A stretch of DNA of 64,000 nucleotides, from NCBI GenBank assembly GCA_029780855.1, contig JAKOXV010000018.1:54104-118103 (forward strand), in the 5' to 3' direction. Positions 5,181-22,202 of the stretch are shown one piece after another. The position numbers and the translations under genes were made by a program. The notes under the pieces were generated by a model. It was not told the origin of the DNA and ran no database searches. It was given only the letters and a program-made list of their open reading frames with translations. Source of the DNA: a bacterium. GTDB lineage: Bacteria; Patescibacteriota; Saccharimonadia; Saccharimonadales; JAUPVS01. Every line of letters begins with the position of its first letter. Position 1 is the first letter of the stretch.

Positions 5181-5256
5181 TGGTGGCTCCTCCCAGACTC
5201 GAACTGGGGACACAAGGCTCTTCAGGCCTCTGCTCTACCAACTGAGCTAAAGAGCC
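5181..5256 (-). tRNA. tRNA-Phe (anticodon GAA), CCA encoded
   Basis: Reverse complement is GGCTCTTTAGCTCAGTTGGTAGAGCAGAGGCCTGAAGAGCCTTGTGTCCCCAGTTCGAGTCTGGGAGGAGCCACCA, with anticodon loop CTGAAGA. Confidence 0.95.
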
Positions 5257-6323: not shown

Positions 6324-8021
6324 CTAACCCTTGCCCCAAACGCTATTTAACGCTATAATCTCCCCTGTTCTAACCCAAAAAGGGAAAAGAGCAGCCCAAG
6401 CAAAAAACGCATTTTTTGCCCGGCGCGATGAGAAAAACCGTAGGTTTGTCTCATTACTATGCGAGACTAGCTCAGTTGATAGAGCGCTTCCTTGCCAAGG
6501 AAGAGGCCACGGGTTTGAGTCCCGTGTCTCGCACCAAATGTTTGAATTATGAGCCGCAAGGCTCTTTTTCTTTGTCTCAACGACTGTTCTAAAGGGGTCG
6601 TTGAGTATATAAGACAACTTCTTATCCTTTAGTTCAATGTTTGAAAGTACGTATTCTAGCAACTTCTGTCTAAGCCCCTCATCGCTCTCATTGAACAGCT
6701 GTTCAGCCCGTTGAGCCAAGTCTAACAGATAGGATGCAGTAACTTGAAAGTCTTTATTGTCGCTTGTTAGCAACTTTAGGCGGTCATTTAGCTCCTGCTG
6801 TTTCTTTTCTAGCTCAGTTGCAATTTCATCGTGGAATGTCTGTGTAATACGACCCTCAAGCAAGTCATAGTAAACCTTTCGCATTTTTTCCTTGAGTTTG
6901 TCGTACTCAGCACGGGTCTGCTCAATGTTTTGCGTGAAGTATAGCTGCTGGTCGTTATGACGGTTACGCAGCTCGGTAATGACTTTATCTAACCACTTCT
7001 CAGGCACGTCTATAAATCCTATATCTTCCGTAACCTTATCAATTACGAGGCTAACGGCTGTATTCGGATTATCGCACTTTGAGTTGGCACACCGCAAATA
7101 CACGGTGTTACGAGCCTTGAACGGCGATACTGCACGTCCGCATTTACCGCACTTCACTATCTTTTTCAGGGTAAAGTCTTTGCTGTCGTACTTAGTCATC
7201 TCGTGCTTACGCTCATCACGGACACGCTGTACCTGATTGTATAAGCCACGACTGATTAGCGGCGGGTACTTGTGCGGGTAGCGTCTGCCAGCGTGAACCA
7301 TAAAGCCGCAGTAAAACTCGTTGCTTAGTATTCGCTCAAGAAATTGTTTGCTTGGTGCTTTACTACCAGCAATGTTGCTACGAAAGCCCATCTCACGCAG
7401 TTCCTTAGCGATAACGGCGTATGAAATGCCTCTTGCTCGCATCTCGTAGGCTTTTACAATGTAGTGAGCCTTAGTGTCATCAACCTCAATGTCTTTGATA
7501 GGTTTCTGTGGCGTACCGCCTTTCAGGACGTTTTTGTAGCCAACAGGTGCTCTATGTACCCATATACCCTCACTGAGCATTTGTTCAAAGCGGCGTTTGA
7601 CGTTATCACGGATACTGTCTGAGTAGTATTTAGCCAGTGCCATACCAATACCAAGCCTGAACCAATCAGCTGCTGACGAGTTTTGGTCAATGTACAAACT
7701 GTCGTGTGGGAAGTGCAGCTCAATTTTTCCGAGCTTTACCAGCTGCTGCAATGCTTTTACTTCTTCTTGGCTACTATCACGGGTAAAGCGGTCTATCTTA
7801 TCAAAGACCACGTAACACAAGCCAGTTTGTTTGTGGATGTGTTCAACTAACTTTCCGAACTTCTGCCGCTCGTCTTTATGAGCACTTTCGTCAAACTCGT
7901 GATACTCGTATGGTAGTTTCTTCTGTTCGGCATATCTTTCAAGCCGTAACTTCTGAGCTGGCAACGCTTTTCGTTGCTCTATATCTGATACTCGTGCGAT
8001 TAGGATTATCTTTGCGTCCAT
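6324..8021 (-). CDS. Large serine recombinase (integrase)
   Basis: N-terminal resolvase domain with catalytic Ser context IILIARVSDIEQR. It also has a recombinase domain, a zinc ribbon CGKCGRAV...LRCANSKCDNPN, and a C-terminal coiled coil. The ORF has no stop until 6324, so the last roughly 70 codons run antisense through the tRNA-Gly gene. Confidence 0.85.
   Translation of the reverse strand: MDAKIILIARVSDIEQRKALPAQKLRLERYAEQKKLPYEYHEFDESAHKDERQKFGKLVEHIHKQTGLCYVVFDKIDRFTRDSSQEEVKALQQLVKLGKIELHFPHDSLYIDQNSSAADWFRLGIGMALAKYYSDSIRDNVKRRFEQMLSEGIWVHRAPVGYKNVLKGGTPQKPIKDIEVDDTKAHYIVKAYEMRARGISYAVIAKELREMGFRSNIAGSKAPSKQFLERILSNEFYCGFMVHAGRRYPHKYPPLISRGLYNQVQRVRDERKHEMTKYDSKDFTLKKIVKCGKCGRAVSPFKARNTVYLRCANSKCDNPNTAVSLVIDKVTEDIGFIDVPEKWLDKVITELRNRHNDQQLYFTQNIEQTRAEYDKLKEKMRKVYYDLLEGRITQTFHDEIATELEKKQQELNDRLKLLTSDNKDFQVTASYLLDLAQRAEQLFNESDEGLRQKLLEYVLSNIELKDKKLSYILNDPFRTVVETKKKSLAAHNSNIWCETRDSNPWPLPWQGSALSTELVSHSNETNLRFFSSRRAKNAFFAWAALFPFWVRTGEIIALNSVWGKG
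6461..6536 (+). tRNA. tRNA-Gly (anticodon GCC), CCA encoded; integration target (attL side)
   Basis: Acceptor GCGAGAC/GTCTCGC. Anticodon arm CTTCC-TTGCCAA-GGAAG. T-loop GGTTTGAGTCC. Confidence 0.95.
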
Positions 8022-8044
8022 AATGTTTACTCCTTACTAACTTA

Positions 8045-9235
8045 CTATAACTTACCAGTATTTTCAATGTTTGATAGAAACTCTGACATTTTCGTAGGTG
8101 TAAACCGCTGCAATGCCTCGTCTATATGCACAAACGCTGTATAGCGATGTGCTTGCGGTGCATTTAGCAGTGGCTTTATGCGATACCACGCTTGCTTGCC
8201 AAAGCGAGCCTCAAGCGTGTTTCGTAAGCCGACAACACCTGCCTGACTAGCAATGAGCATCCCTGCCACTGCTGCTAGTGCAGCTTGTGGGGTAACGTCA
8301 TCGTTTGCCTCAAGGTAGTTTTGTAAAAGCTCGTACGGCTGTTTTACGTCCAGTGCCAACATATCTACATTGGCTGTCAGCTTTTTCCAGTGCTTGAGTA
8401 GTATGTTTTGGCACAACTTCATATTGAATAGGCTTTCAAATGTCCATTGTTCTAAGTCTGGGTAGGCTCGCTTGATAGAGGCTCTACCGACAAAGCGTAC
8501 TTCATATCTGAATACTTCCATTGGTCGGTATTCGGATAGACCCTCAAGCAAATTGAGCTGCACCGAGCTGTCTTTTTCAAAAGCTCGTTTGTTGCTTTTC
8601 TTTGCTTTTAGCAAGTCAGCCATTTTGTCGTAAAAGGCTATATCAAGTGAGTTAGCGTGAATGTGTACGACGTGTCCATCACGAAAATCGGTCTTCTGAA
8701 AATCGTACGTCTTGCTTACATCCAGCTTGCCCATTGTATTGAGGATTGTTTGGCACGATGTGTAGTCAAGAAACACAATGTTCTTAGACGGATGCCAAGC
8801 TGAAATATCAGCGTGAGCAAGCTGTGGTTTGAAGAACCGATGACCGAGCAATTCGTGCAAAGCTGTCTGCAATGCGGTAAGCAGAGCGTCAAAGTCTTTT
8901 TCTTCTAGCTCATCAAAGTTGTTGCCAAACAACATCTTTGGTGCTGAAAACTCAACTGCCAATTCGTATGTTACTGCACCGAACTTTCGCACTCGCTTGT
9001 ACATTGTCAGTCGTGGCATATACTTGCCCATCTTGGCGTATGTAGGCGAGGGGTTGAGGAATGTCTTGCCATAGCCTCTGCTGTTTACGAGCTGCTCAAG
9101 TGTGATTGGCGTAAACCTGCTGCCATCAAAGACCAGCGGATTATGTACGGGTATGAGTAGTTTTACTGTGTCTACCATAGCGTTCATCACTTCTTTCAAA
9201 TAACTCAACGCACTTAGCAATAACTGCTTGCTCAA
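8045..9235 (-). CDS. Putative replication initiation protein (resembles phage/plasmid gene II/X-CRI type); otherwise hypothetical
   Basis: The segment MPRLTMYKRVRKFGAVTYELAVEFSAPKMLFGNNFDELEEKDF recalls the conserved block of phage CRI / gene II replication proteins. Recognition is from memory only. The start is uncertain (overlaps the upstream ORF; alternative ATGs at 9187 and 9178). Confidence 0.4.
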   Translation of the reverse strand: MSKQLLLSALSYLKEVMNAMVDTVKLLIPVHNPLVFDGSRFTPITLEQLVNSRGYGKTFLNPSPTYAKMGKYMPRLTMYKRVRKFGAVTYELAVEFSAPKMLFGNNFDELEEKDFDALLTALQTALHELLGHRFFKPQLAHADISAWHPSKNIVFLDYTSCQTILNTMGKLDVSKTYDFQKTDFRDGHVVHIHANSLDIAFYDKMADLLKAKKSNKRAFEKDSSVQLNLLEGLSEYRPMEVFRYEVRFVGRASIKRAYPDLEQWTFESLFNMKLCQNILLKHWKKLTANVDMLALDVKQPYELLQNYLEANDDVTPQAALAAVAGMLIASQAGVVGLRNTLEARFGKQAWYRIKPLLNAPQAHRYTAFVHIDEALQRFTPTKMSEFLSNIENTGKL

Positions 9236-9452
9236 TAACTCTGCCAGCCTCTTTGGTTACTGGGTAAAAGTAGTTGAGCTGGCGTGAGCCAACTTTCTTA
9301 GTTGGGTAGGTTATGCGATAGCCTGTGCCGTCTAGCCGCTGGTGTACGCCAAGCGAGCCAATGAACAACTGCCCATCAATCAGGCAGCTGGCAAAAGCTA
9401 CAAGTCCGTCAGTCGGTTTGACTGGCGTTATACTCACTTCGCTAACGGTCAT
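9141..9452 (-). CDS. SpoVG-like nucleic-acid-binding protein
   Basis: VSITPVKPTDGLVAFASCLIDGQLFIGSLGVHQRLDGTGYRITYPTKKVGSRQLNYFYPVTKEAGRVIEQAVIAK follows the SpoVG pattern: a beta-hairpin with 'G.l.A.asi.ld..f.v..i.v', then 'fv.mPs.k...g...d..hPi....r..i..avl'. Confidence 0.6.
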   Translation of the reverse strand: MTVSEVSITPVKPTDGLVAFASCLIDGQLFIGSLGVHQRLDGTGYRITYPTKKVGSRQLNYFYPVTKEAGRVIEQAVIAKCVELFERSDERYGRHSKTTHTRT

Positions 9453-9514
9453 TTTTCTTTCGCTCCATCGCTATTTCCTTATTGCTTGCCCAAGACCAAG
9501 CCGAAAGAAGTATG

Positions 9515-9733
9515 CTAATCAGTTTGTTGAGTGTTATTCGTAGTACCTTGTAGAAAATCATCACTTTCGTTCCTTTGTTCATTAGGTTGCCTTGAGGCAA
9601 AATCCATTTGTATAAGCACGTCAAAGAAACCAGTAAGGTTGTGGATTGCCTTATCGCTCAACTCAGCAGCCACGCCATCGTTTGCGGCGTTATCTTGTGG
9701 TTCTGCTGGTAGTGGTTTATTCTTCGTTGCCAT
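9515..9733 (-). CDS. Small acidic hypothetical protein (72 aa)
   Basis: ORF only. It is in the same orientation as the flanking element genes. Confidence 0.35.
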   Translation of the reverse strand: MATKNKPLPAEPQDNAANDGVAAELSDKAIHNLTGFFDVLIQMDFASRQPNEQRNESDDFLQGTTNNTQQTD

Positions 9734-9820
9734 ATAAAAAGTAGCCTCACTAACGAGACTACTTGCACGGCATACGAGCCAACCTAGACGCTCACTGGCT
9801 CACATTTCGCTCACATTTTA

Positions 9821-11716
9821 CTACTGATATTTTGTCTGTATTCGTACTTTTCCAGCTTTGAACTTTAACAGTTTCTCTATACCCAAGTCGTTCTTAACTC
9901 TTTTGTTTACCCTCAAGTGAGCGTCATAAACCGCACGTTGGCTGTCTTGGCTTTTTGGCGAGTATTCCAAAATGTCATCCTCTTTCGCAGCCACTCTACG
10001 GTTTCTAAAGACGAGCTTGCACATATAATGTTCTATCGTTTCGTCAGGTATCTCGCACGTCTTACCCGTGAATGTCAGCTTACTGGCTTTTGCGTCAAAC
10101 CTTACTTTATCCTGACCCGTTGGTTCTGGCTTTGGCTCAGACTTAGCATTTGGCTGCTCTTTGGCAGGTTCTTTACTTTGGGTCTCAGTTTTTGGCTCTT
10201 GGTTGTATTTTGCTGCTGTCTTTTCTAAACGCTTTTCAAAGTTGGCGTTCAGACGAGCCTTTTCTTTACGATGCTCCGCAATGGCTTTATCCGTGTCATC
10301 TAATACCCGTTGCTCATCTTCTTCTAACTTGAATGCTCCAACTCCATCAGCCTTTTCAACCCAAAGTCGTTCTAGCTTGCCATAAAAGCCCCATAGCTCA
10401 GGTCGCATAAACTCGTATCCAATATCCAAGTCTTCCATATTGCCCATAAAGGTATCGTATATAGACGGCTTTTCTTCACGTAATTTAGCAAACTCATCTT
10501 GGGCGAGTATTTTGTCTATTCTAATTGTGAGTAGCAGATAACTACGATTGAGTAAGCCGTCTTCAAAACCTACATAACCGAATGACATTGCATCGTATAC
10601 TTCGCATATCTTGCCCCAAAAAATCATTAGCATCTGCATATCACGCAAATGACCCAAGTTGTTCTTTAGCTCATCAAAAGCGGTTTTTTGATGCTCAGTA
10701 AGCTCAAGTTCATAAGACTGCTTATCAGCAGTTGTCTTCGGACGACCTTTGACGACAAATGTTTTACTACCTGAATACTGGTCAATAAACTCGTTTACCT
10801 GCTTGAAGCTCAGCGGCTTGAATGACGATAAAGGTACACGAATTGGTTTCTGGTCGTTGTCGCCAAACGCTTTACCGACTACTGCCATAAAGAGTATCAG
10901 GCGTTCTTGTTCAGATGTTGCTGCAATGGTTTCGCTATTATCTTCTAGTTTTGGCTTATTGTCTGTTTTTTCCTCTGCAACATTATCATCAAAATGAGCG
11001 GGAGCATCATCGGGATAGTTAGGTTGCGGTTTCGGTTCTTTGTCTATGACTAGCTTTTTCGTCAATGCAGCAGTTTTACTGTTTGGCGAGTTGGTAATTA
11101 GCTCCAAGAATACCGCATCAAACCTACGACGACTTGCCGTTACTTTGTACAGCTGAGTTGTGCTGTTCGGCGATGGCTTGTACAGCTCGTAAGAGTTGAT
11201 AGCACCAACCTCTTTGAGAAACCTTAGTGCCTTAGAGTGTATCTGCTTGATGTGGTATAGCGATAGGCTCTTTTCGTGTACGCCTTTCCAAAGGGTCGCA
11301 GTGCTTTTGTCTGCCTCAAATGTTGCAATACCATCAGTGCGGATGTTTAGTTCTTGGTTTATCAGTTCGGCTACTGCATAAATCCGATAGTAGTTGTCGT
11401 GCGTTAGGTTTTTAACGCCAAAACGGTTAGACGCATAAATCGTGTCGTAATACTCATCAAAACTTGGCAGTACCTCAATTTTATAATTTGAGTAGTTCGG
11501 TCTATCGGCTCTAATTACATTGCCAGTTGGCTTTTCAAGTAACCTGACAATTCCATCGGCTGCTAACTTCTCAAGAATTGTTTTTAGCTCAAGTCTTGTT
11601 ACTTTTTCCTTGTCTATTGCATCGGGGTCTAAAAAACAAGGCTGGCTGTCAGCACTAAGTTGGTTTGCGGTATCAATTTGACCGAGCAGGTATAGTATTT
11701 TTTCTGTGGCGTTCAT
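9821..11716 (-). CDS. Large hypothetical protein of the element (about 631 aa), with a K/E/P-rich region in the C-terminal quarter
   Basis: Long uninterrupted ORF. Start taken at the ATG (MNATEK) preceded by AGAGAAG. No motif recognised. Confidence 0.6.
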   Translation of the reverse strand: MNATEKILYLLGQIDTANQLSADSQPCFLDPDAIDKEKVTRLELKTILEKLAADGIVRLLEKPTGNVIRADRPNYSNYKIEVLPSFDEYYDTIYASNRFGVKNLTHDNYYRIYAVAELINQELNIRTDGIATFEADKSTATLWKGVHEKSLSLYHIKQIHSKALRFLKEVGAINSYELYKPSPNSTTQLYKVTASRRRFDAVFLELITNSPNSKTAALTKKLVIDKEPKPQPNYPDDAPAHFDDNVAEEKTDNKPKLEDNSETIAATSEQERLILFMAVVGKAFGDNDQKPIRVPLSSFKPLSFKQVNEFIDQYSGSKTFVVKGRPKTTADKQSYELELTEHQKTAFDELKNNLGHLRDMQMLMIFWGKICEVYDAMSFGYVGFEDGLLNRSYLLLTIRIDKILAQDEFAKLREEKPSIYDTFMGNMEDLDIGYEFMRPELWGFYGKLERLWVEKADGVGAFKLEEDEQRVLDDTDKAIAEHRKEKARLNANFEKRLEKTAAKYNQEPKTETQSKEPAKEQPNAKSEPKPEPTGQDKVRFDAKASKLTFTGKTCEIPDETIEHYMCKLVFRNRRVAAKEDDILEYSPKSQDSQRAVYDAHLRVNKRVKNDLGIEKLLKFKAGKVRIQTKYQ

Positions 11717-11762
11717 CACTTCTCTCAAAACACGTTTCTGGTAAGTCGTGTATAGTTATAGT

Positions 11763-11966
11763 ATGACACAATCAGGAAAAAAAGAGCCGAAGCTACTCAC
11801 GCTCAAACAGGCGTGTGAACTGCTGAATTGTCATCCAAACACGCTACGTGCGTGGGATGAAAAAGGTTACTTAGTTGCTGTGCGTTTTGGAACACGTCGT
11901 GATAGGCGATATAAACGGGAAGATGTGATGAAGTTATTGGAAAAAAATGACACAAGAAAAAACTGA
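11763..11966 (+). CDS. Excisionase/MerR-type helix-turn-helix DNA-binding protein
   Basis: LLTLKQACELLNCHPNTLRAWDEKGYLVAVRFGTRRDRRYKREDV is the excisionase-family HTH_17/MerR pattern. It is divergent from the replication genes. Confidence 0.75.
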   Translation: MTQSGKKEPKLLTLKQACELLNCHPNTLRAWDEKGYLVAVRFGTRRDRRYKREDVMKLLEKNDTRKN

Positions 11967-12816
11967 CACAACAAGTGAAAGCATAGAAACCGAACACGTA
12001 ACGCCACAATCAAAAAGTGGTCTTAGTAAACATATCAAGATAACTTTAGGGATTGTCGGGGCTTTATTGCTCATTCCTCTTTCTTACGCTGGTTATGTCT
12101 ATGCCGCCTCGCCAGCCGTCATACGCAACCCGAAGCTAGAACACTATCATTTCCGTATGCAAATACTGGTAAACGGCAAAGCCGAAGACTTTAGTAGCAA
12201 GGCTTACCAGACTGGCTATGCTAAAGACCAGTGCAATGCTAACTTGCCTGAACAACCAATCCACTTTCACGACAATAAAGACCAGTTTACTCATATCCAC
12301 TGGGAAGGTATGACGGGTGGTATGGTTATGAAGTATTACGGCTGGAACTATATCGGTGGTATGAGCAACGCACTTGGCTACAAGCTGGATAATCTCAAAG
12401 ACCCGCAAAAGGTAACAACTCACGGCAATTACCTACCAGCCGTACCAAAAGACGCTACTTTCTATGTCTACACGGGCGATGAGAACAGCTACAAAGAACG
12501 TACTTTCAACGACTGGAAAAGCCAAGACTTAGAAACCTTTTTCGGCACTACCAGTAATTTCCCAGCTCACGACATAAACAAAGGCAAGAAGACGAGCTTA
12601 CTAGATACGTTGTTCCCGAAAGCCTACGCACACGGCACAGAAAATGACGGAGATGGCAACGATGGTAGTGAAACCGATCAAGAAAAGCGAACACGCATCA
12701 ACAACCTCGTTGGCAGTGTCGTTGTATTCGTGCAAAAAGACAAGCCAACCGACCAGCAAGTCAAAGACCGATTTAATAAACTACTGCCCCTAGATGACAG
12801 TACGTGTGGGGGTTAA
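11947..12816 (+). CDS. Membrane-anchored exported protein, His/Trp-rich, unknown function (289 aa)
   Basis: N-terminal TM ITLGIVGALLLIPLSYAGYVYA. Contains HYHFRMQ..., IHFHDNKDQFTHIHWEGMTGG, and a C-terminal DDSTCGG. Its stop lies 2 nt before the CDF start. Confidence 0.55.
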   Translation: MTQEKTDTTSESIETEHVTPQSKSGLSKHIKITLGIVGALLLIPLSYAGYVYAASPAVIRNPKLEHYHFRMQILVNGKAEDFSSKAYQTGYAKDQCNANLPEQPIHFHDNKDQFTHIHWEGMTGGMVMKYYGWNYIGGMSNALGYKLDNLKDPQKVTTHGNYLPAVPKDATFYVYTGDENSYKERTFNDWKSQDLETFFGTTSNFPAHDINKGKKTSLLDTLFPKAYAHGTENDGDGNDGSETDQEKRTRINNLVGSVVVFVQKDKPTDQQVKDRFNKLLPLDDSTCGG

Positions 12817-12818
12817 AA

Positions 12819-13709
12819 ATGAGCCATAATCACGACCAAAACAATAACGATGGAAGTATCAAGTTCGGGCTAGTTCTGAACACTGGCTTTACCATTGTTG
12901 AGTTTATCTTCGGCATACTGACAGGCAGCCTTGCTCTTATAGCAGACGCTGCTCATAACCTGACAGATACCTTTACACTCTCAGTATCATTTATCGCAAA
13001 CCGTCTTGCACGGCGTGAAGCAAATGACAGTAAAACCTTTGGCTATGGACGTGCAACGATACTCGCTGCCTTGCTCAATGCTACTGTAATGCTGGCTGTT
13101 GCAGCCTTTATCGTCATTGAGGCTGTTCAACGGCTTGGCAATCCGCACCCCGTAGAGGGCGGTGTCGTGGCTGCTGTGGCGTTTGTCGGCATACTGGTAA
13201 ATGGCTCAATCGCTATTGTTCTGTCCAAAAACCGCAAAGACTTGAATATGCGGAGTGCCTTTGTAGATATGGCGTTTGACGCACTATCTTCACTCGGAGC
13301 TGTTATAGCTGGTCTGATTATCTGGCTCACAGGCATAACTTGGGTAGATAGTGCCGTAGGTTTAGTGATTGCTGCCTTATTGGTCTACAACACGCTCAAA
13401 ATACTACGTGAAGCGGTGCAAATACTACTTGAGGGTACGCCAAAAGACTTGGATACTGCAGCAATAACCCAAGCCATTACTGATACTGACAAAGTATTAT
13501 CCGTAGACGATATGCACGTCTGGGCTATCCGCTCAGGTTATAACGCTCTAAGCTGCCATATTGCGATTGATGAAACTGACCTAAAAGACAGCCGAAACAT
13601 TGTAGAGGTTGTAAAAGCCAAGCTACGCAAAGACTACGATATTCAACACGCTACGATTGAAGTTGAGCTAGAAGACTGTACCAAGCACGACGAACACGAG
13701 CGACATTAG
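12819..13709 (+). CDS. Cation diffusion facilitator (CDF) family divalent-metal efflux transporter
   Basis: His-rich N-terminus MSHNHDQ, TM2 motif LALIADAAHNLTDT, TM5 VDMAFDALSSLG, and a C-terminal cytoplasmic domain ending HDEHERH. Confidence 0.9.
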   Translation: MSHNHDQNNNDGSIKFGLVLNTGFTIVEFIFGILTGSLALIADAAHNLTDTFTLSVSFIANRLARREANDSKTFGYGRATILAALLNATVMLAVAAFIVIEAVQRLGNPHPVEGGVVAAVAFVGILVNGSIAIVLSKNRKDLNMRSAFVDMAFDALSSLGAVIAGLIIWLTGITWVDSAVGLVIAALLVYNTLKILREAVQILLEGTPKDLDTAAITQAITDTDKVLSVDDMHVWAIRSGYNALSCHIAIDETDLKDSRNIVEVVKAKLRKDYDIQHATIEVELEDCTKHDEHERH

Positions 13710-13720
13710 GGCAATGAAGT

Positions 13721-14671
13721 ATGAAGCTGAGAAAGTATCTTACTATCAGTCGCAGCCAGTTCGTTGAAGCCTCGCTGATAACGGCTCTACAAAGCTGTTC
13801 TGATAAATCGCCAGTTAAACTGATTGAACACTGCAATTCGCTCAACAATAGCTATAAACGACGTAACTACACAACTGTTGCCATTGTCATACGAGGGGTG
13901 CTTGATTACATACCGACCATTTTTGGTTTTGCAAATACTACTCAGGTTTACTCAGAATTACAGGGTAGGCGAACATTCAAGGACGCATTGAAGCAGCTTG
14001 ACCAAGCCAGTCGCAACCTTGCTGATGATGGTTTGCACAGTCCAGCTCGTAAAGATGAAACACTCAAAGTTAGTAAGCTGACTGTTGATAATCTACAAGG
14101 AAACCTTGCTATTGTGCTGAGTGAAACAGCCACACAACTACGAACAAAGGATTTGCGTGACGACGGAAATGCCAAGTTAGACGAGCAAAGAGCCGTAAAA
14201 CCCAAGCGACAAAAGTCGCAGCTGGAAACCTTTGAGGATTACATTGTAAATAAGCAATGGACTGAGCAGGAACTAGATGGCGATACGGTTTGGATTTGCG
14301 AAACGGATAACCTCTACCAAATACACAGCCGAGGCGATTATGACGAGTTTAGTGAGCTGTGGACACAGGTTTATCCTGATAAAAACGGTTCAGGTAAGCA
14401 TAGCGTTGACCTTGTATATGCTGGCACAATCATCAAGCGGTTTACGTTCATCTACTGTGACGGCGGTCGTATAAGTGTAGTTATGCCTGAGCTTTATATA
14501 GCACCAGAGCATCGTATTCCAAATAAAGACTGGAACGACAAAACAGATTACCGTGAGTATTTCTGGAAAAAGGACAGTATCAAGTTCAAGTTGATGAAGC
14601 TCATCGGTAGTTTTTACATCTACAACACGCCAGAGGGTGTGGCTAAACACTCAAACATACAGATAAAATAG
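13721..14671 (+). CDS. Hypothetical protein (316 aa)
   Basis: ORF between the CDF and csoR modules. No motif recognised. Confidence 0.5.
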   Translation: MKLRKYLTISRSQFVEASLITALQSCSDKSPVKLIEHCNSLNNSYKRRNYTTVAIVIRGVLDYIPTIFGFANTTQVYSELQGRRTFKDALKQLDQASRNLADDGLHSPARKDETLKVSKLTVDNLQGNLAIVLSETATQLRTKDLRDDGNAKLDEQRAVKPKRQKSQLETFEDYIVNKQWTEQELDGDTVWICETDNLYQIHSRGDYDEFSELWTQVYPDKNGSGKHSVDLVYAGTIIKRFTFIYCDGGRISVVMPELYIAPEHRIPNKDWNDKTDYREYFWKKDSIKFKLMKLIGSFYIYNTPEGVAKHSNIQIK

Positions 14672-14777
14672 CCGTCCAGAAAACGCTTGGCAAAGTTGCC
14701 CCCAAAAATTGGGTACTTATACGGCGGAGTACCTACAACAGATATAAGGGGAGACTACCCCCCTACTAACACGCCGT

Positions 14778-14806
14778 TTGCATAGTACCCCTAGGGGGTA
14801 TATAGT
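14778..14806 (+). promoter_or_regulatory. Sigma70-type promoter with an embedded CsoR-type operator
   Basis: TTGCAT (14778-83), a 17-nt spacer, then TATAGT (14801-06). The spacer is the GC-rich inverted repeat TACCCCTAGGGGGTA (14786-14800), closely resembling known CsoR boxes (TACCC..GGGGGTA type). A second G/C-tract pseudo-palindrome lies at 14747-14765. Confidence 0.65.
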
Positions 14807-14813
14807 AAGAGGT

Positions 14814-15098
14814 ATGATAGGCGATATAAAACAGCGTGCTTTGCACCGAGCCAAGATACTTGAGGGTCAAATGCGTGGTGTTCAGAAGATGATTGAAAAC
14901 GAAGACTACTGTATGGACATACTCACGCAGAGCCTGGCTATTCAAAAGTCTATTGGCTCACTCAATAAGCTGATACTTGAAAACCACGTGCGAACGCACA
15001 TTAAAGAGAACCTTAGTTCAAGCTCCGAAGACGAACAAGAAAAAGCAGTAGCCGAATTGTTAGAACTGTACGAGCTAACAAACGTAAGGGGTAAATAG
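14814..15098 (+). CDS. csoR: CsoR/RcnR family metal-sensing transcriptional repressor
   Basis: KQRALHRAKILEGQMRGVQKMIENEDYCMDILTQSLAIQKSIGSLNKLILENHVRTHI is the DUF156 pattern, including the conserved Cys in YC.D.L.Q and a His in the last helix. Confidence 0.9.
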   Translation: MIGDIKQRALHRAKILEGQMRGVQKMIENEDYCMDILTQSLAIQKSIGSLNKLILENHVRTHIKENLSSSSEDEQEKAVAELLELYELTNVRGK

Positions 15099-15100
15099 CC

Positions 15101-15469
15101 GTGAAGCTATTAACAGCTATTAAAAACACCCTTGTTCTATTGGCTGTTGTGTTACTAAACTCGCTTACCTTTGTTGGTCATTCAGCGGCAATGAGCACAA
15201 TGTCGCACGAAATGGGCGGTATGAAACATACTTCAAGCGATGCAACTTCGTGTGCAACTCTTTGCCGCACAGCAGTTGTTAACAAAGAAGAAAACGCCAT
15301 TCGGAGCGATGAGAACGAAGATGATGACGAGCCAGCCTTGCCGTTCTATGCTCAAAACCAACAGTTGTACTTAGATAGTAAATCTATATCTCAGCGGCTA
15401 TACGCAGCCGAAATAAAACCGCCGCCAAAGATACCGATTTACATACTCTATGGTGTATTCAGAGCGTGA
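15101..15469 (+). CDS. Secreted Met/His-rich small protein (putative Cu-binding)
   Basis: GTG start and a signal-like LVLLAVVLLNSLTFVGHSAA. Then MSTMSHEMGGMKHTSSDATSCATLC. Its position is between csoR and DUF305. Confidence 0.55.
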   Translation: MKLLTAIKNTLVLLAVVLLNSLTFVGHSAAMSTMSHEMGGMKHTSSDATSCATLCRTAVVNKEENAIRSDENEDDDEPALPFYAQNQQLYLDSKSISQRLYAAEIKPPPKIPIYILYGVFRA

Positions 15470-15519
15470 GATTTTGTTTGTACTAACAAGCAATTCCTAA
15501 ACGTAACTTTGGAGAACCT

Positions 15520-16185
15520 ATGAAGAAGAACAATATAATCATCGTCGCTATCGTGGCAGTCGTTGCTATTGCTGGCGTAAGTATTTACGCAATAAGCAAG
15601 AATAACGACAAAAATATGATGGACGATAATATGATGGGCAACAACTCATCGCAACAATCAGCAAGCGGAACAGTAGATAAAAACTCATCCGAATACAAGA
15701 TGTACAGCGAGCTAAAGGGCGAAGACTATGACCGAATGTTTCTTGCCAATATGATTGCCCACCATCAGGGTGCAGTTGATATGGCAAACCTCGCACTGAC
15801 CAGTGCCAAACACCAGGAAATTAAAGATATGGCAAACAACATCATATCGGCTCAAACCAAAGAAATTGGTGATATGCAAAGCTGGCAATCGTCTTGGGGT
15901 TATCCTGCCAGCAGCGGCTCTATGATGGAAGACCACTCGTCAATGGGAATGATGAACGATATGGCTGGTATGACCGATAAACTCAAGGGTTTGTCTGGGG
16001 ATGCGTTTGATAAAGCGTTTCTATCTTCAATGATTGAGCACCATCAATCGGCTATCAATATGGCATATCCTGGACAAACAAATGCTCAACACGAGGAAGT
16101 AAAAATACTAACAAAAGCTATCGTTGATGCACAGAGCAAGGAGATTGCCCAAATGCAGCAGTGGCAAAAAGACTGGGGCTACTAA
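15520..16185 (+). CDS. DUF305 domain protein (duplicated four-helix metal-related domain)
   Basis: Two repeats of D..FL..MI.HHQGA..MA (YDRMFLANMIAHHQGAVDMA and FDKAFLSSMIEHHQSAINMA), plus an N-terminal TM/signal. Confidence 0.85.
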   Translation: MKKNNIIIVAIVAVVAIAGVSIYAISKNNDKNMMDDNMMGNNSSQQSASGTVDKNSSEYKMYSELKGEDYDRMFLANMIAHHQGAVDMANLALTSAKHQEIKDMANNIISAQTKEIGDMQSWQSSWGYPASSGSMMEDHSSMGMMNDMAGMTDKLKGLSGDAFDKAFLSSMIEHHQSAINMAYPGQTNAQHEEVKILTKAIVDAQSKEIAQMQQWQKDWGY

Positions 16186-16194
16186 GGAATAAAT

Positions 16195-16704
16195 ATGAAA
16201 GACAAAGTATTTTACGGGTTTCTAGCACTCGTGGTCGTTGGTTTTTTGGGGTTTGCAGTTGCCAATAAAGCACCTGAAAAGCCTAGACCAGGAACAGAAC
16301 ACCAAGATAATGGTCGTAAGCACGTGCAATCAAAGAAGTATGGTGGCGATGAGCCGCCTACTTCTGGCGACCACGCAGAGCCTTTAGCTTGGCAAGTCTA
16401 CGACCAAGAAGTACCTGATGCGAATGTGATACACAATATGGAACACGGCGGTGTCTATATTTCATATCGTCCTGACCTGCCAAAAGACCAAATAGACAAA
16501 ATCAAGGCATTGTTTTCAAAACCTTACTCAAATGCAAAGTTCAGCCCGACAAAGGCAATTGTTGCACCTCGTGCTGAGGATAAAGCACCAATTGTAATGT
16601 CATCGTGGACACGCAGTGAGAGTTTTCAGAGTTTTGATGAGGCTAAGATGATTGAATACTACTTGGCAAATATAGGTAAAAGTCCAGAACCAGGAGCAAG
16701 CTAA
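16195..16704 (+). CDS. DUF3105 domain protein
   Basis: N-terminal TM, then PPTSGDHAEPL...NMEHGGVYISYRPDLP...APIVMSSW, which matches the DUF3105 pattern as I recall it. Confidence 0.7.
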   Translation: MKDKVFYGFLALVVVGFLGFAVANKAPEKPRPGTEHQDNGRKHVQSKKYGGDEPPTSGDHAEPLAWQVYDQEVPDANVIHNMEHGGVYISYRPDLPKDQIDKIKALFSKPYSNAKFSPTKAIVAPRAEDKAPIVMSSWTRSESFQSFDEAKMIEYYLANIGKSPEPGAS

Positions 16705-18737
16705 TGGAACACTCGCACCACGCACACCAACACAGTGAACACCAAGAACACGACAAACACGCTGGTCATTCAGTTGCTATGTTCAAGGATAAGTTCTGGC
16801 TATCGTTTATTTTGACCATACCCGTACTAGCATATAGCGAGATGATACAGCACTGGTTGAACTTTACGCCGCCAGCATTTCCTGGCTCGCAGTATGTGCC
16901 GTTTGTCCTAAGTACCATCATATTCTTTTACGGCGGTACGGTGTTCATCAAGGGTGCGTGGAACGAGTTAAAAGCCAAATTGCCAGGTATGATGACGCTT
17001 ATCAGCCTGGCAATTATCACAGCTTACGTGTATAGCGTTGCAACGCAGTTTTGGCTATCAGGCGAGGGTTTCTTTTGGGAGCTAGCAACTTTGGTAACCA
17101 TTATGCTGCTAGGGCATTGGCTTGAAATGGCATCGGTAGCAAAAGCCGAGGGTGCTTTAGATGCCATATCTAAACTACTGCCTGATAAAGCTGAAAAGTT
17201 AGTCAACGGAAAGCCAAAGCAAGTCTTGGTTAGCGAGCTGAAAGTTGGCGACTTAGTATTGATACGTCCTGGCTCTCGCATTCCTGTTGATGGCGTAATC
17301 ACAGATGGTAAATCGTCAATTGATGAAGCTGCTATCACTGGCGAAAGTAAACCAGTAAGCAAATCTGTAAATGATGAGGTTGTCGCTGGTACGGGCAACC
17401 AAGACGGCTCGCTGACCGTAAAGGTTACGAAAATCGGTCAAGATACAGCACTCGCAGGAATTATGCGGCTTGTTGCCGAAGCTCAAAGCTCAAAATCAAA
17501 TGTGCAGGTACTGGCAGATAAGGCAGCATTTGCCCTTACTATCATTGCTATTGCAACAGCTATCATTACTTTTATTTACTGGGTGTTTGCTAAAGATACG
17601 GCTTTCGCACTTGAACGTTCGGTAACAGTTTTGATTATCGCCTGTCCTCACGCACTTGGCTTAGCAATCCCACTGGTTGTTTCAATTTCAACTGCTATAT
17701 CTGCACGAAGCGGCTTGCTTGTCCGCAAGCGTCTGGCACTGGAAGCGGCTCGCAACCTAGACTGGGTACTTTTTGATAAGACGGGTACGCTTACTAAAGG
17801 CGAACACGGCGTAACGGATATTTGGGCTACAAAAGGTTATACCGAGGAAGATATTTTGCACCTAACCGCTAGTCTTGAGCAGAACAGTGAACATATCGTA
17901 GGTAAAGGCATAGTCGGCGAGGCAACTAAAAGGCACGTTCATTTAGATAAAGTTGAAGACTTTGCCGCTCTGCCTGGTTTGGGTGTTAAGGGCAAATTGC
18001 ACGGTAAAGATAACTTCGTAGCGGCAAGTTATCGTTATATCAAAGAAAATAAACTCAAAGTTCCTGATGATATTGAGCGGTATTCAAAGCAAGCCGCTAA
18101 GGACGGTAAAACTGAGGTTTATTTGATTAAAGATAACCAGTTAGTTGTGGGGGCAATTGCTCTGGCTGATGTTATCCGTGAGCAGTCAAAGCAAGCCATT
18201 GCTGCACTTAAAGCCGAGGGCGTAAAGACTGCAATGGTAACTGGCGACAGCCAAGATGTAGCGGCTTATGTTGCAAAGCAGCTTGGCTTAGACCAGTATT
18301 TTGCTGAGGTGCGACCAGAGGATAAGGCGACAAAGGTTAAAGAATTACAGCGAACTGGCAGCAAAGTGGCATTTGTTGGCGATGGAATAAACGATGCACC
18401 TGCACTAACAACCGCTGATATTGGTATGGCTATCGGTGCTGGCACGGATGTAGCAATCAAATCAGCTGACATTATATTGGTTAAAAGCGACCCAAGAGAT
18501 GTGATAAGGGTAATCCACTTGTCCAAAGCGACTTATCGTAAGATGGTTCAGAACCTGGCGTGGGCTACTGGCTATAATGTGGTAGCTATTCCGCTTGCGG
18601 CAGGTGTGCTTTACGGTTCAGGTATTGTCTTATCGCCAGCGGTTGGAGCTGTTCTAATGTCGCTATCAACTGTGATTGTGGCTATCAATGCTCAGCTGCT
18701 AAGGCGTGTTCACTACCATCCAGGTCATAGCCACTAA
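16704..18737 (+). CDS. copB: Heavy-metal P1B-type ATPase, CopB-like (P1B-3 signature)
   Basis: His-rich N-terminus [24 protein letters not shown] motif CPH ([11 protein letters not shown]). [21 protein letters not shown](x4)P (GYNVVAIP) and MSLST in the last helices, the subgroup 1B-3 hallmarks. Confidence 0.9.
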
Positions 18738-18883
18738 GCATTTACTTCAATTTGGCATAAAAAATAGGCATTGCTGCCTAGTTGTTTGAAAGTCTGAGCG
18801 TGTTTTATATCAAGTTATCCGCTAATCTAAATTGTTCAGCCAGATGTTTTAGCTTATAATCCTCTTGAGCAAGCGTAGCTGCC

Positions 18884-18912
18884 GTTTGAAATGCGTCAAC
18901 TATGCTGCACCA
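18884..18912 (+). repeat. 29-nt direct repeat, copy 1 (ends in tRNA-3'-end-like ...CTGCACCA)
   Basis: GTTTGAAATGCGTCAACTATgCTGCACCA, 28/29 identical to 19821-19849. Confidence 0.9.
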
Positions 18913-18955
18913 TTACAACCCAAACGTTTTTTGCCCAGAGAGCTTTCAAACATTT

Positions 18956-18977
18956 AGACCCTTCCGGGTCTTTTTTG
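18956..18977 (+). terminator. Intrinsic terminator upstream of the NTase gene
   Basis: AGACCC-TTCC-GGGTCT followed by TTTTTT. Confidence 0.65.
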
Positions 18978-18990
18978 TTAAGATTGATTT

Positions 18991-19767
18991 ATGAACAACT
19001 TGTTGCCAATTGATTTTAAAGACGAACGTGGGCGAAAAGTTTTTGAAGAAGTAATTGAAAATCTTCCAGAAGACGTTGAAGTTTACCTTATTGCAGGCAG
19101 TCTACGAAACGCAATTGATAGACATTTTCATAGCGGCAGCAAATTAGAGCAGCGAGATTATGACCAAATTGTTATTAAAGGTAGCGATAAGTACCTTGCC
19201 TACCTAAAAAATCTTGGCTTTTATGACGGACGCATTCAGCGACCAACGCAAAAAGTGCAAATCAAATCATTTGTAGGCAATGAAGACCCAGAAGATTTTG
19301 CAAACAACCTTGTTTTTGACATTCATCTAATGGACGGCACGGATGTTCTAGACAACCTCAAAAATCACGTCGGATTAAAAGTAAACGGCAACGCAATCTC
19401 TATTAGGGACATATTTTCTGATGACTGGCAGAATAAACTCGTTTCATTACCAGGTGCATTGCAGTCTATTGAAAAGAAGCAGCTGAAACTAAACCCCGAA
19501 GGCTACAAACACCAAGCGGCAAATTTGTTTTCAGTGATAAGGTTCGTGCATAATGGCTATGAGCCGCCTAGAAAAGAAGACATAATGCTGCTGGTTCAAG
19601 AGCTGCCACGAGTTGAAGATGACCGGTACGAAAAGAATGTACAAAAGGTTTATAAATACGTTGGCGGTGAAGAAAACGCTCGCAAGATTTGCCAAGAGAT
19701 AGGCATAGATTTTAATGTATTTGATAAACAGGCGGTAATCAAGAGATTAAGTCAGGAGACAAATTAA
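18991..19767 (+). CDS. Nucleotidyltransferase-fold protein resembling the head domain of CCA-adding/poly(A) polymerase enzymes (258 aa)
   Basis: VYLIAGSLRNAIDRHF...RDYDQIVIKG parallels the vYLVGGaVRD...kDiDi motif of PolyA_pol/CCA enzymes. A further acidic DIHLMDGTD follows. Assignment is from motif memory only. Confidence 0.45.
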   Translation: MNNLLPIDFKDERGRKVFEEVIENLPEDVEVYLIAGSLRNAIDRHFHSGSKLEQRDYDQIVIKGSDKYLAYLKNLGFYDGRIQRPTQKVQIKSFVGNEDPEDFANNLVFDIHLMDGTDVLDNLKNHVGLKVNGNAISIRDIFSDDWQNKLVSLPGALQSIEKKQLKLNPEGYKHQAANLFSVIRFVHNGYEPPRKEDIMLLVQELPRVEDDRYEKNVQKVYKYVGGEENARKICQEIGIDFNVFDKQAVIKRLSQETN

Positions 19768-19770
19768 AGA

Positions 19771-19797
19771 TAGCCGCAAGATGGGCTAGTTTTTTGT
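19771..19797 (+). terminator. Intrinsic terminator after the NTase gene
   Basis: TAGCC-GCAAGATG-GGCTA followed by GTTTTTTG. Confidence 0.55.
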
Positions 19798-19820
19798 TGT
19801 TGTATTCTTCTATTGCAGAT

Positions 19821-19849
19821 GTTTGAAATGCGTCAACTATCCTGCACCA
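19821..19849 (+). repeat. 29-nt direct repeat, copy 2
   Basis: GTTTGAAATGCGTCAACTATcCTGCACCA. Confidence 0.9.
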
Positions 19850-19887
19850 ATAAGAATGCCCCACCTTGCGTGGGGTTTTCTTATTGG
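19846..19887 (+). terminator. Two-tier terminator hairpin starting at the CCA of repeat copy 2 (same design as genuine tRNA terminators here)
   Basis: CCAATAAGAA-tg-CCCCAC-CTTGC-GTGGGG-t-TTCTTATTGG. Confidence 0.6.
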
Positions 19888-19999
19888 TCTGTGGACGCAC
19901 GGACGCAAAACCGTGAAATTGCGAAGCAATTTGGGTTTGATAATTTGTTTGCTCTCGCAGGAGTTTGCTCCGAGAAAGCAGGCAAATTTCCGGTTATTA

Positions 20000-22114: not shown

Positions 22115-22202
22115 GGGCGAGTGGCGGAATTGGTATACGCGACGGACTTAAAATCCGTTGGCTGAATAAGCCTTGAGGGTTCGAGTCCCTCCTCGCCCAC
22201 CA
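22115..22202 (+). tRNA. tRNA-Leu (anticodon TAA), CCA encoded; starts at the nucleotide after the tRNA-Cys CCA
   Basis: Acceptor GGGCGAG/CTCGCCC. Anticodon arm CGGA-CTTAAAA-TCCG. Long variable arm. T-loop GGTTCGAGTCC. Confidence 0.9.

Follow-up and report, generated by a model that had tools for sequence, protein, structure and literature searches.

Repeats around a short nucleotidyltransferase gene in a Saccharibacteria genome as probable attachment-site scars of a serine integrase that carries attP within its own gene

The DNA analysed here, called the window throughout, is a 64,000-nucleotide stretch of contig JAKOXV010000018.1 (positions 54,104 to 118,103; assembly GCA_029780855.1) from a member of the Saccharimonadales. 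Two 29-bp direct repeats in it, both ending like tRNA 3' termini, flank a single gene for a 258-amino-acid (aa) nucleotidyltransferase (NTase). These repeats are very probably the crossover-proximal parts of two attR-type junctions, left in Saccharibacteria by elements of a large serine recombinase (LSR) that inserted at the 3' end of tRNA-Gly(GCC) and whose attP lies inside the integrase gene. As part of the same explanation, and with the same good probability, the NTase gene together with a short leader and a fragment of integrase coding sequence, the tail, forms an older, integrase-less unit in a tRNA-Gly hotspot. The NTase itself is ordinary cargo, one among many unrelated cargo genes. The features on which the argument draws, with their window coordinates, are as follows.

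6324-8021, minus strand: LSR open reading frame (ORF) in its integrated form (Pfam Resolvase, Recombinase and Zn_ribbon_recom; PHROG 95 integrase)
6461-6536, plus strand: tRNA-Gly(GCC), called by ARAGORN, with 3' end ...CTCGCACCA, the chromosomal (B) arm; attL at 6536|6537
6537-6850, minus strand: F module, comprising the final ~105 codons of genuine integrase (ITQTFHDEI...NSNI); P' side of attP
6537-18912, no strand assigned: integrated island of 12.4 kb, with bounds from the comparison of attL, attR, attP and attB and cargo from Pfam
18805-18912, minus strand: upstream tail module, a start-less 35-codon ORF WCSIVDAFQTAATLAQEDYKLKHLAEQFRLADNLI plus stop (nhmmer score 96.9); repeat copy 1, which makes up P arm and core of attR, takes up the first 29 nt (18884-18912)
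18913-18990, plus strand: leader module, ACCCAAAC...TTTCAAACAT, with a hairpin and a -10-like TAAGAT 7 nt before the ATG
18991-19767, plus strand: predicted short class II nucleotidyltransferase (head and neck), 258 aa, from profile and structure evidence; cargo of the putative integrase-less unit
19739-19849, minus strand: downstream tail module with 36 codons, WCRIVDAFQTSAIEEYNNKKLAHLAAIFNLSPDLIS, and a stop; repeat copy 2 is formed by its first 29 nt (19821-19849)
19846-19888, plus strand: two-tier terminator, from inverted-repeat and terminator scans; its outer stem pairs with ACCA

The repeats in the window

The 29-mer GTTTGAAATGCGTCAACTAT(G/C)CTGCACCA stands on the plus strand at 18884-18912 (copy 1) and 19821-19849 (copy 2). 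The two copies agree at 28 of 29 positions, and a scan of the whole window that allowed up to three mismatches returned only these two, against none expected from 100 shuffles. A single ORF of 258 aa (18991-19767) sits between them. This much of the original prediction, which had been made from the sequence alone, was confirmed, and so was its remark that copy 2 is followed by the same two-tier, ACCA-clamping terminator as genuine tRNAs. Hairpins with T-runs lie at 18956-18971, 19771-19788 and 19858-19876, and in the last of these ACCA is paired within an outer stem (19846-19864 / 19870-19888). The extent of 29 bp was the part of the description that had to be corrected, as on the left side the likeness continues for ~76 nt more. 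Over this extension DNA identity is only ~50%, despite which there is clear protein-level conservation on the minus strand; the right edge is sharp and falls exactly past ...GCACCA. On the minus strand both repeats encode related peptides, WCSIVDAFQTAATLAQEDYKLKHLAEQFRLADNLI upstream and WCRIVDAFQTSAIEEYNNKKLAHLAAIFNLSPDLIS downstream, which begin at the complement of CCA and stop ~35 codons on.

The repeats had been taken for either relic tRNA 3' ends or att sites. The second suggestion is essentially right, and the first was not borne out. ARAGORN calls no tRNA at either copy, an Rfam search of the repeats gave no match at E <= 1, and RNAalifold folding of 91 aligned copies found no conserved structure on either strand. 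All that the repeats have in common with tRNA-Gly is GCACCA, and the remainder of the repeat is integrase coding sequence. As for the terminators, all seven tRNA genes of the window encode CCA (among them those at 1195-1281, 1500-1576, 5181-5256, 6461-6536 and 22115-22202), and behind most of them stands a two-tier hairpin terminator in which ACCA is paired into the outer stem, like the one behind copy 2. Pairing of this kind is a habit of the genome as a whole and no peculiarity of the repeats.

Two other candidates for the core were set aside. A dif/Xer-like site was suggested by partial likeness to GGTGCGCATAA...TTATGTTAAAT and was dropped after the LSR evidence. The hexamer spacing, judged by eye, did not suit a sigma-70 promoter inside the core, and the promoter and terminator scan gave no site there.

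Attachment-site junctions and the split integrase gene

In the window, tRNA-Gly meets F at 6536|6537 (attL) and the upstream tail meets the leader at 18912|18913 (attR). The corresponding attP-type junction, tail directly against F, was found on metagenome contig L119, where positions 600-1595 match window 18912-17918 (the end of the ATPase gene and the upstream tail) at 86% and positions 288-605 match window 6848-6531 (the integrase 3' end) at 96.5%. These two matches overlap by 6 nt, GCACCA. The attB-type arrangement, in which tRNA-Gly is followed directly by the leader, is present in loci L087 and L053 and is homologous over at least the first ~25 nt of the leader. This set of junctions identifies 6537-18912 as an integrated island and copy 1 as its attR. 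The cargo of the island comprises the LSR, a CDF transporter, a CsoR-type repressor, DUF305 and DUF3105 proteins, a P-type (putatively Cu) ATPase and three proteins with no family match. Across genomes, 34 of the 35 loci that contain tRNA-Gly(GCC) have it upstream of the tails and in the same orientation, and the far side of the hotspot is frequently marked by tRNA-Cys/tRNA-Leu(TAA), as in the window.

The recombinase of the window matches PF00239 (5.9e-16), PF07508 (1.6e-12) and PF13408 (1.8e-4), as well as PHROG 95 integrase (2.5e-59). Codons 1-495 (8021-6537) are genuine integrase and end ...AAHNSNI at 6537. Codon 496 (TGG, W496) is the complement of the CCA of tRNA-Gly(GCC), and the translation across the junction reads ...KKKSLAAHNSNI|WCETRDSNPWPLPWQGSALSTELVSH; from W496 onward the ORF consists of antisense tRNA-Gly and the sequence beyond it, 70 unrelated codons in all. 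When the 827 ORFs that neighbour the tails were clustered by BLASTP, the most recurrent family was the LSR, at 22 loci. Its C-terminal region across loci reads ...LSNIELKDKKLSYILNDPFxxxVExKKKSLxAHNSNI. What follows ...NSNI in frame is either WCxIVDAFQT... (L076, L068, L053) or WCGYRDSNPGP..., the latter being antisense to a tRNA that ARAGORN identified as tRNA-Gly(GCC) in every locus checked.

Supporting this, a search with the junction as query found the integrase end and the tail contiguous and in frame in at least 30 distinct database ORFs. In-frame F-tail ORFs also occur in L076, L068, L053 and L119, and the one in L119 (P0146) has 99% protein identity to a query of window F plus upstream tail. 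A diverged LSR lineage (L053, P0139) likewise has the contiguous form. In many genomes the F module moreover survives by itself, as a discrete piece beside tRNA-Gly or beside tail cores. Among viral contigs just one attL fragment was found, and thus no sign that the element is a phage.

F, which is ~320 nt long, has a constant distal breakpoint, ...GG|ATTACACAGAC (protein GR|ITQTFHDEI), at about window 6850, and past it the sequence is completely different between genomes (L022, L024, L037, L038, L042, L045, L080, L086, L094, L111 and L119). This breakpoint could be a second recombination site, or could go back to one ancestral deletion.

The tail module across genomes

Tails were collected by scanning 185,579 species genomes with the pattern AATGCGTCANNTATNNTGCACCA, for which ~4 chance matches are expected by estimate. 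The scan returned 99 genomic stretches, all but four of them titled Saccharibacteria/Saccharimonadales or unclassified bacteria, and those four belong to Chloroflexi or Ktedonobacter. Aligned on ...ACCA, the copies are conserved over ~105 nt with a period of three, and conservation ends abruptly after ACCA. The minus-strand frame (WCxIVDAFQT...LI*) stays open over 35-41 codons in 94 of 105 copies, conservation is lowest at third codon positions, and pN/pS is 0.44 in this frame as against 0.9-1.2 in the other two frames of the same strand. The tail is under purifying selection as coding sequence. Some old copies carry stop codons and form a decay series.

The frame has no enriched start codon, since an in-frame ATG, GTG or TTG lies upstream in 44% of copies, equal to the control frame, and only a few copies read MWC.... 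A Pfam search of the tail peptides gave nothing, and in a profile search of 5.8 billion proteins the tail alone was found only in chance ORFs of 37-69 aa and in no larger protein. This last result bore on the idea of a displaced 3' end of a host gene, which was superseded by the link to the LSR.

The gene to the left of the module runs in the same direction as ...ACCA in 90 of 95 cases, ending at the module's left edge. These neighbours are mutually unrelated and include P-type ATPase, DUF1428 and toxin-antitoxin genes. Where several tails share a locus they are always co-oriented, and a profile search found 38 loci with 2-5 such tails at a spacing of 0.65-1.4 kb. With the same module standing behind many unrelated genes in ~100 genomes, the "striking coincidence" that had been seen between the enzyme and its repeats dissolves; the repeats belong to a dispersed family that has no relation to this particular gene.

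Between the tails of such arrays (L106, L098, L087, L099, L084) lie small genes for PIN, AbrB/MazE, MazF, RelE-like and DUF1428 proteins, and L106 has five tails within 8 kb. These tail-closed arrays look like integron cassette arrays, yet the recombinase to which they are linked is of the serine type and their anchor is tRNA-Gly.

Proposed mechanism

In the explanation favoured here, attP of this element family would lie inside the integrase gene, 35 codons ahead of its stop, and the free circular form would carry one continuous ORF, ...NSNI-WCxIVDAFQT...LI*. Integration at the ...GCACCA of tRNA-Gly would split this ORF. The 495-codon body would remain by the tRNA (attL), where it would read on into antisense tRNA, and the 35-codon tail with its 29-nt DNA-conserved core would be carried to the far end of the element (attR), ahead of the sequence that formerly lay downstream of the tRNA. 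Copy 1 would accordingly be attR of the 12.4-kb metal-resistance island, and copy 2 the junction of an older unit that had earlier come to separate tRNA-Gly from its native two-tier terminator. The 29 bp would be nearly identical because the recombinase must recognise them, with the adjoining tail diverging like coding sequence, and the tRNA-like end of the repeats would be due to GCACCA, the crossover core, which is identical in attP and the tRNA-Gly attB. I infer the recombination activity of the LSR, a free circle in which attP is intact and the whole integrase has the tail as its end, the exact crossover dinucleotide and the origin of the tandem arrays.

The two tails of the window have only 54% aa identity, which points to a different integrase lineage and an earlier event for the downstream copy, and not to duplication by one insertion. 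The terminator at 19846-19888 is probably the original downstream flank of tRNA-Gly (B'), displaced by successive insertions, since a hairpin of this kind also stands behind tRNA-Gly in L085 and L080, where the gene is unoccupied.

Several observations weigh against this account. There is no full-length LSR ORF contiguous with a tail among the fetched loci or the best 120 of 242 matches in the 5.8-billion-protein database, and the contiguous forms listed or fetched all start at the F boundary and are 113-162 aa long. The reconstructed attP and attB have no detectable dyad symmetry, the best arrangement giving 11 of 26 matches where shuffles average 12.2. The search pattern fixes 19 of the 29 core bases, which by itself accounts for part of the core conservation in the main copy set; in copies that the pattern did not select, the core likewise surpasses the tail in conservation (pairwise identity 0.75 versus 0.47). 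Finally, there are tandem tail|F junctions and arrays of up to five tails per 8 kb. Canonical LSRs are not known to recombine attP with attL, and these arrangements therefore call for something further: homologous recombination through F, or a relaxed choice of site, may have produced them.

Alternative explanations

A variant of this explanation holds that the integrase-less units (leader or F, cargo, tail core) are cassettes mobilised in trans by the LSR, with tRNA-Gly serving as a cassette platform and not as a graveyard of decayed islands. The window's own unit (leader, NTase gene and tail; 18913-19849) lies between the island's attR and the two-tier terminator. Its leader, with the ATG at +79/80, precedes at least five unrelated genes, and by its sequence it looks like a portable promoter giving leaderless mRNAs. 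In favour of the variant, a constant left-end module of this kind, be it the 79-80-nt leader with its promoter-like -10 or the sharply bounded F, stands before different cargo. In addition, L009, L010 and L011 encode one and the same NTase protein sequence behind different upstream tails, and the same types of junction partner follow both tRNA-Gly and tail cores. However, for no single cassette was a circular form or a presence/absence pair observed, the leader has no similarity to the F-type P' arm, and the tails include a decay series. I regard mobilisation in trans as possible, though on balance doubtful.

The leader (~79 nt, with a -10-like TAnnAT 7-8 nt before the ATG) was also seen in L009-L012, L030, L051, L057, L063, L073, L078, L087, L095 and L098.

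It is very unlikely that the 35-codon ORF is an independent small-protein gene, for instance for an antisense-encoded peptide, convergent with the upstream gene and with the 29-nt core as its translation-initiation region. The strength of purifying selection, the intact frame in most copies and the few copies that read MWC... would suit such a gene, but no start codon is conserved and upstream starts are no more frequent than in the control frame. Moreover, TGG is the exact limit of conservation, a promoter would find no space at the 5' end because terminator hairpins or tRNA genes lie right against it, and wherever F adjoins, the frame is continuous with that of the LSR.

An integron-like system would explain the arrays, with two to five co-oriented modules 0.65-1.4 kb apart, each after one or two small genes including toxin-antitoxin pairs, and also the sharp boundary and the conserved core. 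The ~105-nt modules would then be attC-type sites of promoter-bearing cassettes, recombined as folded single strands by a tyrosine recombinase. This is highly improbable. Neither strand has a conserved hairpin (alifold energy about -1 to -3, comparable to column shuffles), the module codes for protein, in continuity with a serine recombinase gene, and the platform is a tRNA gene and not an attI site. The recurrent recombinase in the BLASTP clusters of the 827 ORFs is the LSR.

The nucleotidyltransferase

Searched as a single sequence or with a narrow profile, the NTase has no match in Pfam, NCBIfam, PHROGs, PADLOC or the PDB sequences, and the window protein has no Pfam match even at E <= 1, PF01743 included. 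Homologues are rare: 36 were found in 5.8 billion proteins, and there are ~71 representatives at 50% identity. Nearly all of them are ~250 aa or shorter fragments, and the sole taxon name on the matches is Candidatus Saccharibacteria. A broad family alignment (A5) has the motifs GGxxRNA...QRDYD, NFTxNGxA, DIxxKxL and LFAxxRFxSxGF. The hidden Markov model (HMM) built from A5 matches the class II CCA-/A-adding enzymes 3WFR/3WFO/3WFP in the PDB at E = 6e-6, with further matches to 4WBY, 3H37, 1VFG and 1MIV, and 12 of the 36 relatives weakly match PF01743, the best at 5e-6.

A first AlphaFold (AF2) model of the NTase (pLDDT 73) gave weak structural matches. The model built on A5 (pLDDT 94.3, pTM 0.89) was matched by Foldseek to CCA-adding enzymes at E = 7e-9, with template modelling (TM) scores of 0.61-0.65 over ~240 residues. 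It aligns to roughly the first half of targets of 410-460 aa, and TM normalised to the target is 0.36-0.45. The link from the NTase to CCA enzymes thus runs solely through the broad family profile and the deep-alignment structure model.

By this evidence, the protein is predicted to be a very divergent, minimal head-plus-neck member of the PF01743 superfamily (class II CCA-adding/poly(A) polymerases). The proposed placement in that superfamily at ~60% of the usual length was therefore upheld by the family HMM, the PF01743 matches of relatives and the model, though the window protein's own Pfam search was negative. G36, S37, D56 and D58 are conserved and D110 is nearly invariant; nucleotidyltransferase catalysis is plausible, with D56, D58 and D110 as the predicted catalytic carboxylates. 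EDxxR (motif D) is missing, the position reading QAANLFSVIRF where the family consensus is LFAxxRF, and so is RRD (motif B), where HVGLKVNGNA stands against a consensus of NFTxNGxA. The body and tail domains that hold the acceptor and T arm of the tRNA are lacking as well. In the absence of the EDxxR templating motif and of the body and tail domains, I do not class the NTase as a CCA-adding enzyme.

Gene neighbourhoods of the NTase differ between genomes. The order repeat-gene-repeat is kept in relatives whose NTase is at least 79% identical (L009-L012, L001), and the repeat module is absent from more distant homologues (73-78% identity). That a tRNA-3'-end-modifying enzyme travels in a mobile cassette between relic tRNA 3' ends to which it is functionally linked has next to no chance of being right: superfamily membership, the conserved order in L009-L012 and L001, and repeats that end in GCACCA and run into tRNA-style terminators speak for it, but the same module stands behind many unrelated genes and is missing at 73-78% identity, the repeats have no tRNA-like fold, no ARAGORN or Rfam match and just 6 nt in common with a tRNA, and the enzyme is without the tRNA-binding body and tail domains.

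At its 3' end the NTase gene overlaps the final codons of the downstream tail ORF in antisense, over 29 nt (19739-19767). The variable C-terminal tail of the protein (…RLSQETN) may be partly dictated by the integrase-tail sequence.

Relation to known systems

The window LSR has the Resolvase-Recombinase-Zn-ribbon architecture of LSR elements and prophages of the phiC31, Bxb1 and A118/LI type, and the element is like them in its short att sites, its small identical core and the logic of its attB, attP, attL and attR junctions. It differs in its target, since insertion at tRNA 3' ends is a habit more typical of tyrosine integrases. It differs also in that attP is placed within the integrase ORF, so that integration would exchange the last 35 codons, in that tails and integrase-3' fragments pile up in tandem at one hotspot, and in its host, a bacterium of the Candidate Phyla Radiation (CPR). 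The half-site model of serine integrase attP and attB proposed for LI integrase has P and B half-sites with a distal motif shifted by about 5 bp (PMC3783163). Here, a single motif, GTTTG, lies 25-29 nt from the ACCA end in the tail (P) arm and 20-24 nt from it in the tRNA-Gly (B) arm, a shift of 5 bp; other tRNA-Gly genes have GTTAG.

In gene organisation the element resembles the SSV-type "suicidal" tyrosine integrases of Archaea (SSV1, pTN3, pT26-2), which also carry att in their own gene; when they integrate into a tRNA gene, the ORF is divided and its parts come to lie on either side of the element. A 2021 review calls this arrangement exclusive to Archaea (PMC8371274). The split there removes an essential part of the enzyme. 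In the present case the recombinase is a bacterial serine recombinase, and the displaced part is a 35-aa C-terminal extension beyond the conserved domains. It is conceivable, though I put it forward only tentatively, that the Saccharibacteria serine-integrase family with attP in the integrase ORF is the first bacterial and first serine-recombinase counterpart of the archaeal gene-splitting integrases, that the swap of the last 35 residues acts as a directionality or stability switch, and that the site is an integron-like cassette platform on which a serine recombinase stacks and exchanges integrase-less, promoter-bearing units, each closed by a tail and core.

Islands linked to tRNA genes can grow by tandem accretion, and displaced copies of gene 3' ends are known, for example for icd after integration of e14 or phage 21. 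These systems share with the present one a substitute or extra 3' segment and direct repeats that mark successive insertions downstream of one tRNA. The duplicated coding segment here, however, comes from the integrase and not from the target, and the tRNA contributes only GCACCA. As for the NTase, it is like the class II CCA-/A-adding enzymes and poly(A) polymerase (PF01743) in its predicted head-and-neck fold, in G[GS]xxR[ND]...DxD, in an NFTINGxA-like motif B and in an LFAxxRF-like motif D helix, and unlike the CCA-adding enzymes in having 258 aa instead of about 400-460, no body or tail domains and no EDxxR.

In a searchable literature that was limited, and hence as weak evidence, I found no account of cassette arrays or integrons in Saccharibacteria or Patescibacteria, or of a serine integrase with attP in its gene; for bacterial serine integrases, such a placement of attP seems not to have been described before. 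With the apparent coupling of a CCA-like enzyme to tRNA-end-like repeats explained away as cargo and attachment-site scars, the point of interest left is a serine integrase gene that spans its own attP, together with a tRNA-Gly-linked hotspot conserved across Saccharibacteria that should concern students of mobile elements and of CPR bacteria. The compact att core (...GCACCA) could become a tool for organisms in which genetic manipulation is very difficult, and the tail modules offer a simple sequence marker for the flux of accessory genes in Saccharibacteria, such as those for metal resistance, toxin-antitoxin systems and the short NTase family.

Other observations

Within the island, three sizeable proteins match nothing in Pfam or PHROGs. 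Two of them, of 396 and 635 aa, are encoded on the minus strand beside the integrase (8045-11728), and the third lies at 11947-12816; those that were searched against PADLOC gave no match there either. The 316-aa ORF at 13721-14671 weakly matches the PADLOC candidate PDC-S50 (2e-9).

Outside Saccharibacteria, Ktedonobacter racemifer DSM 44963 has a 430-nt tail|F (attP-type) fragment (L076:1134-1554) with a GC content of 43-46% in a higher-GC Chloroflexi genome, and this fragment is 87% identical to the window's integrase 3' end. Among Chloroflexi metagenome-assembled genomes, L068 has a shorter tail|F piece, and L035 and L083 match the tail only. The Chloroflexi copies suggest transfer from Saccharibacteria, or contamination.

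A tail core abuts tRNA-Val(TAC) directly in L073 and lies 17 nt before it in L047. The tRNA-Leu(GAG) gene, at 1195-1281 in the window, ends GCGCACCA and in L087 sits just upstream of tRNA-Val; it may be a second integration target.

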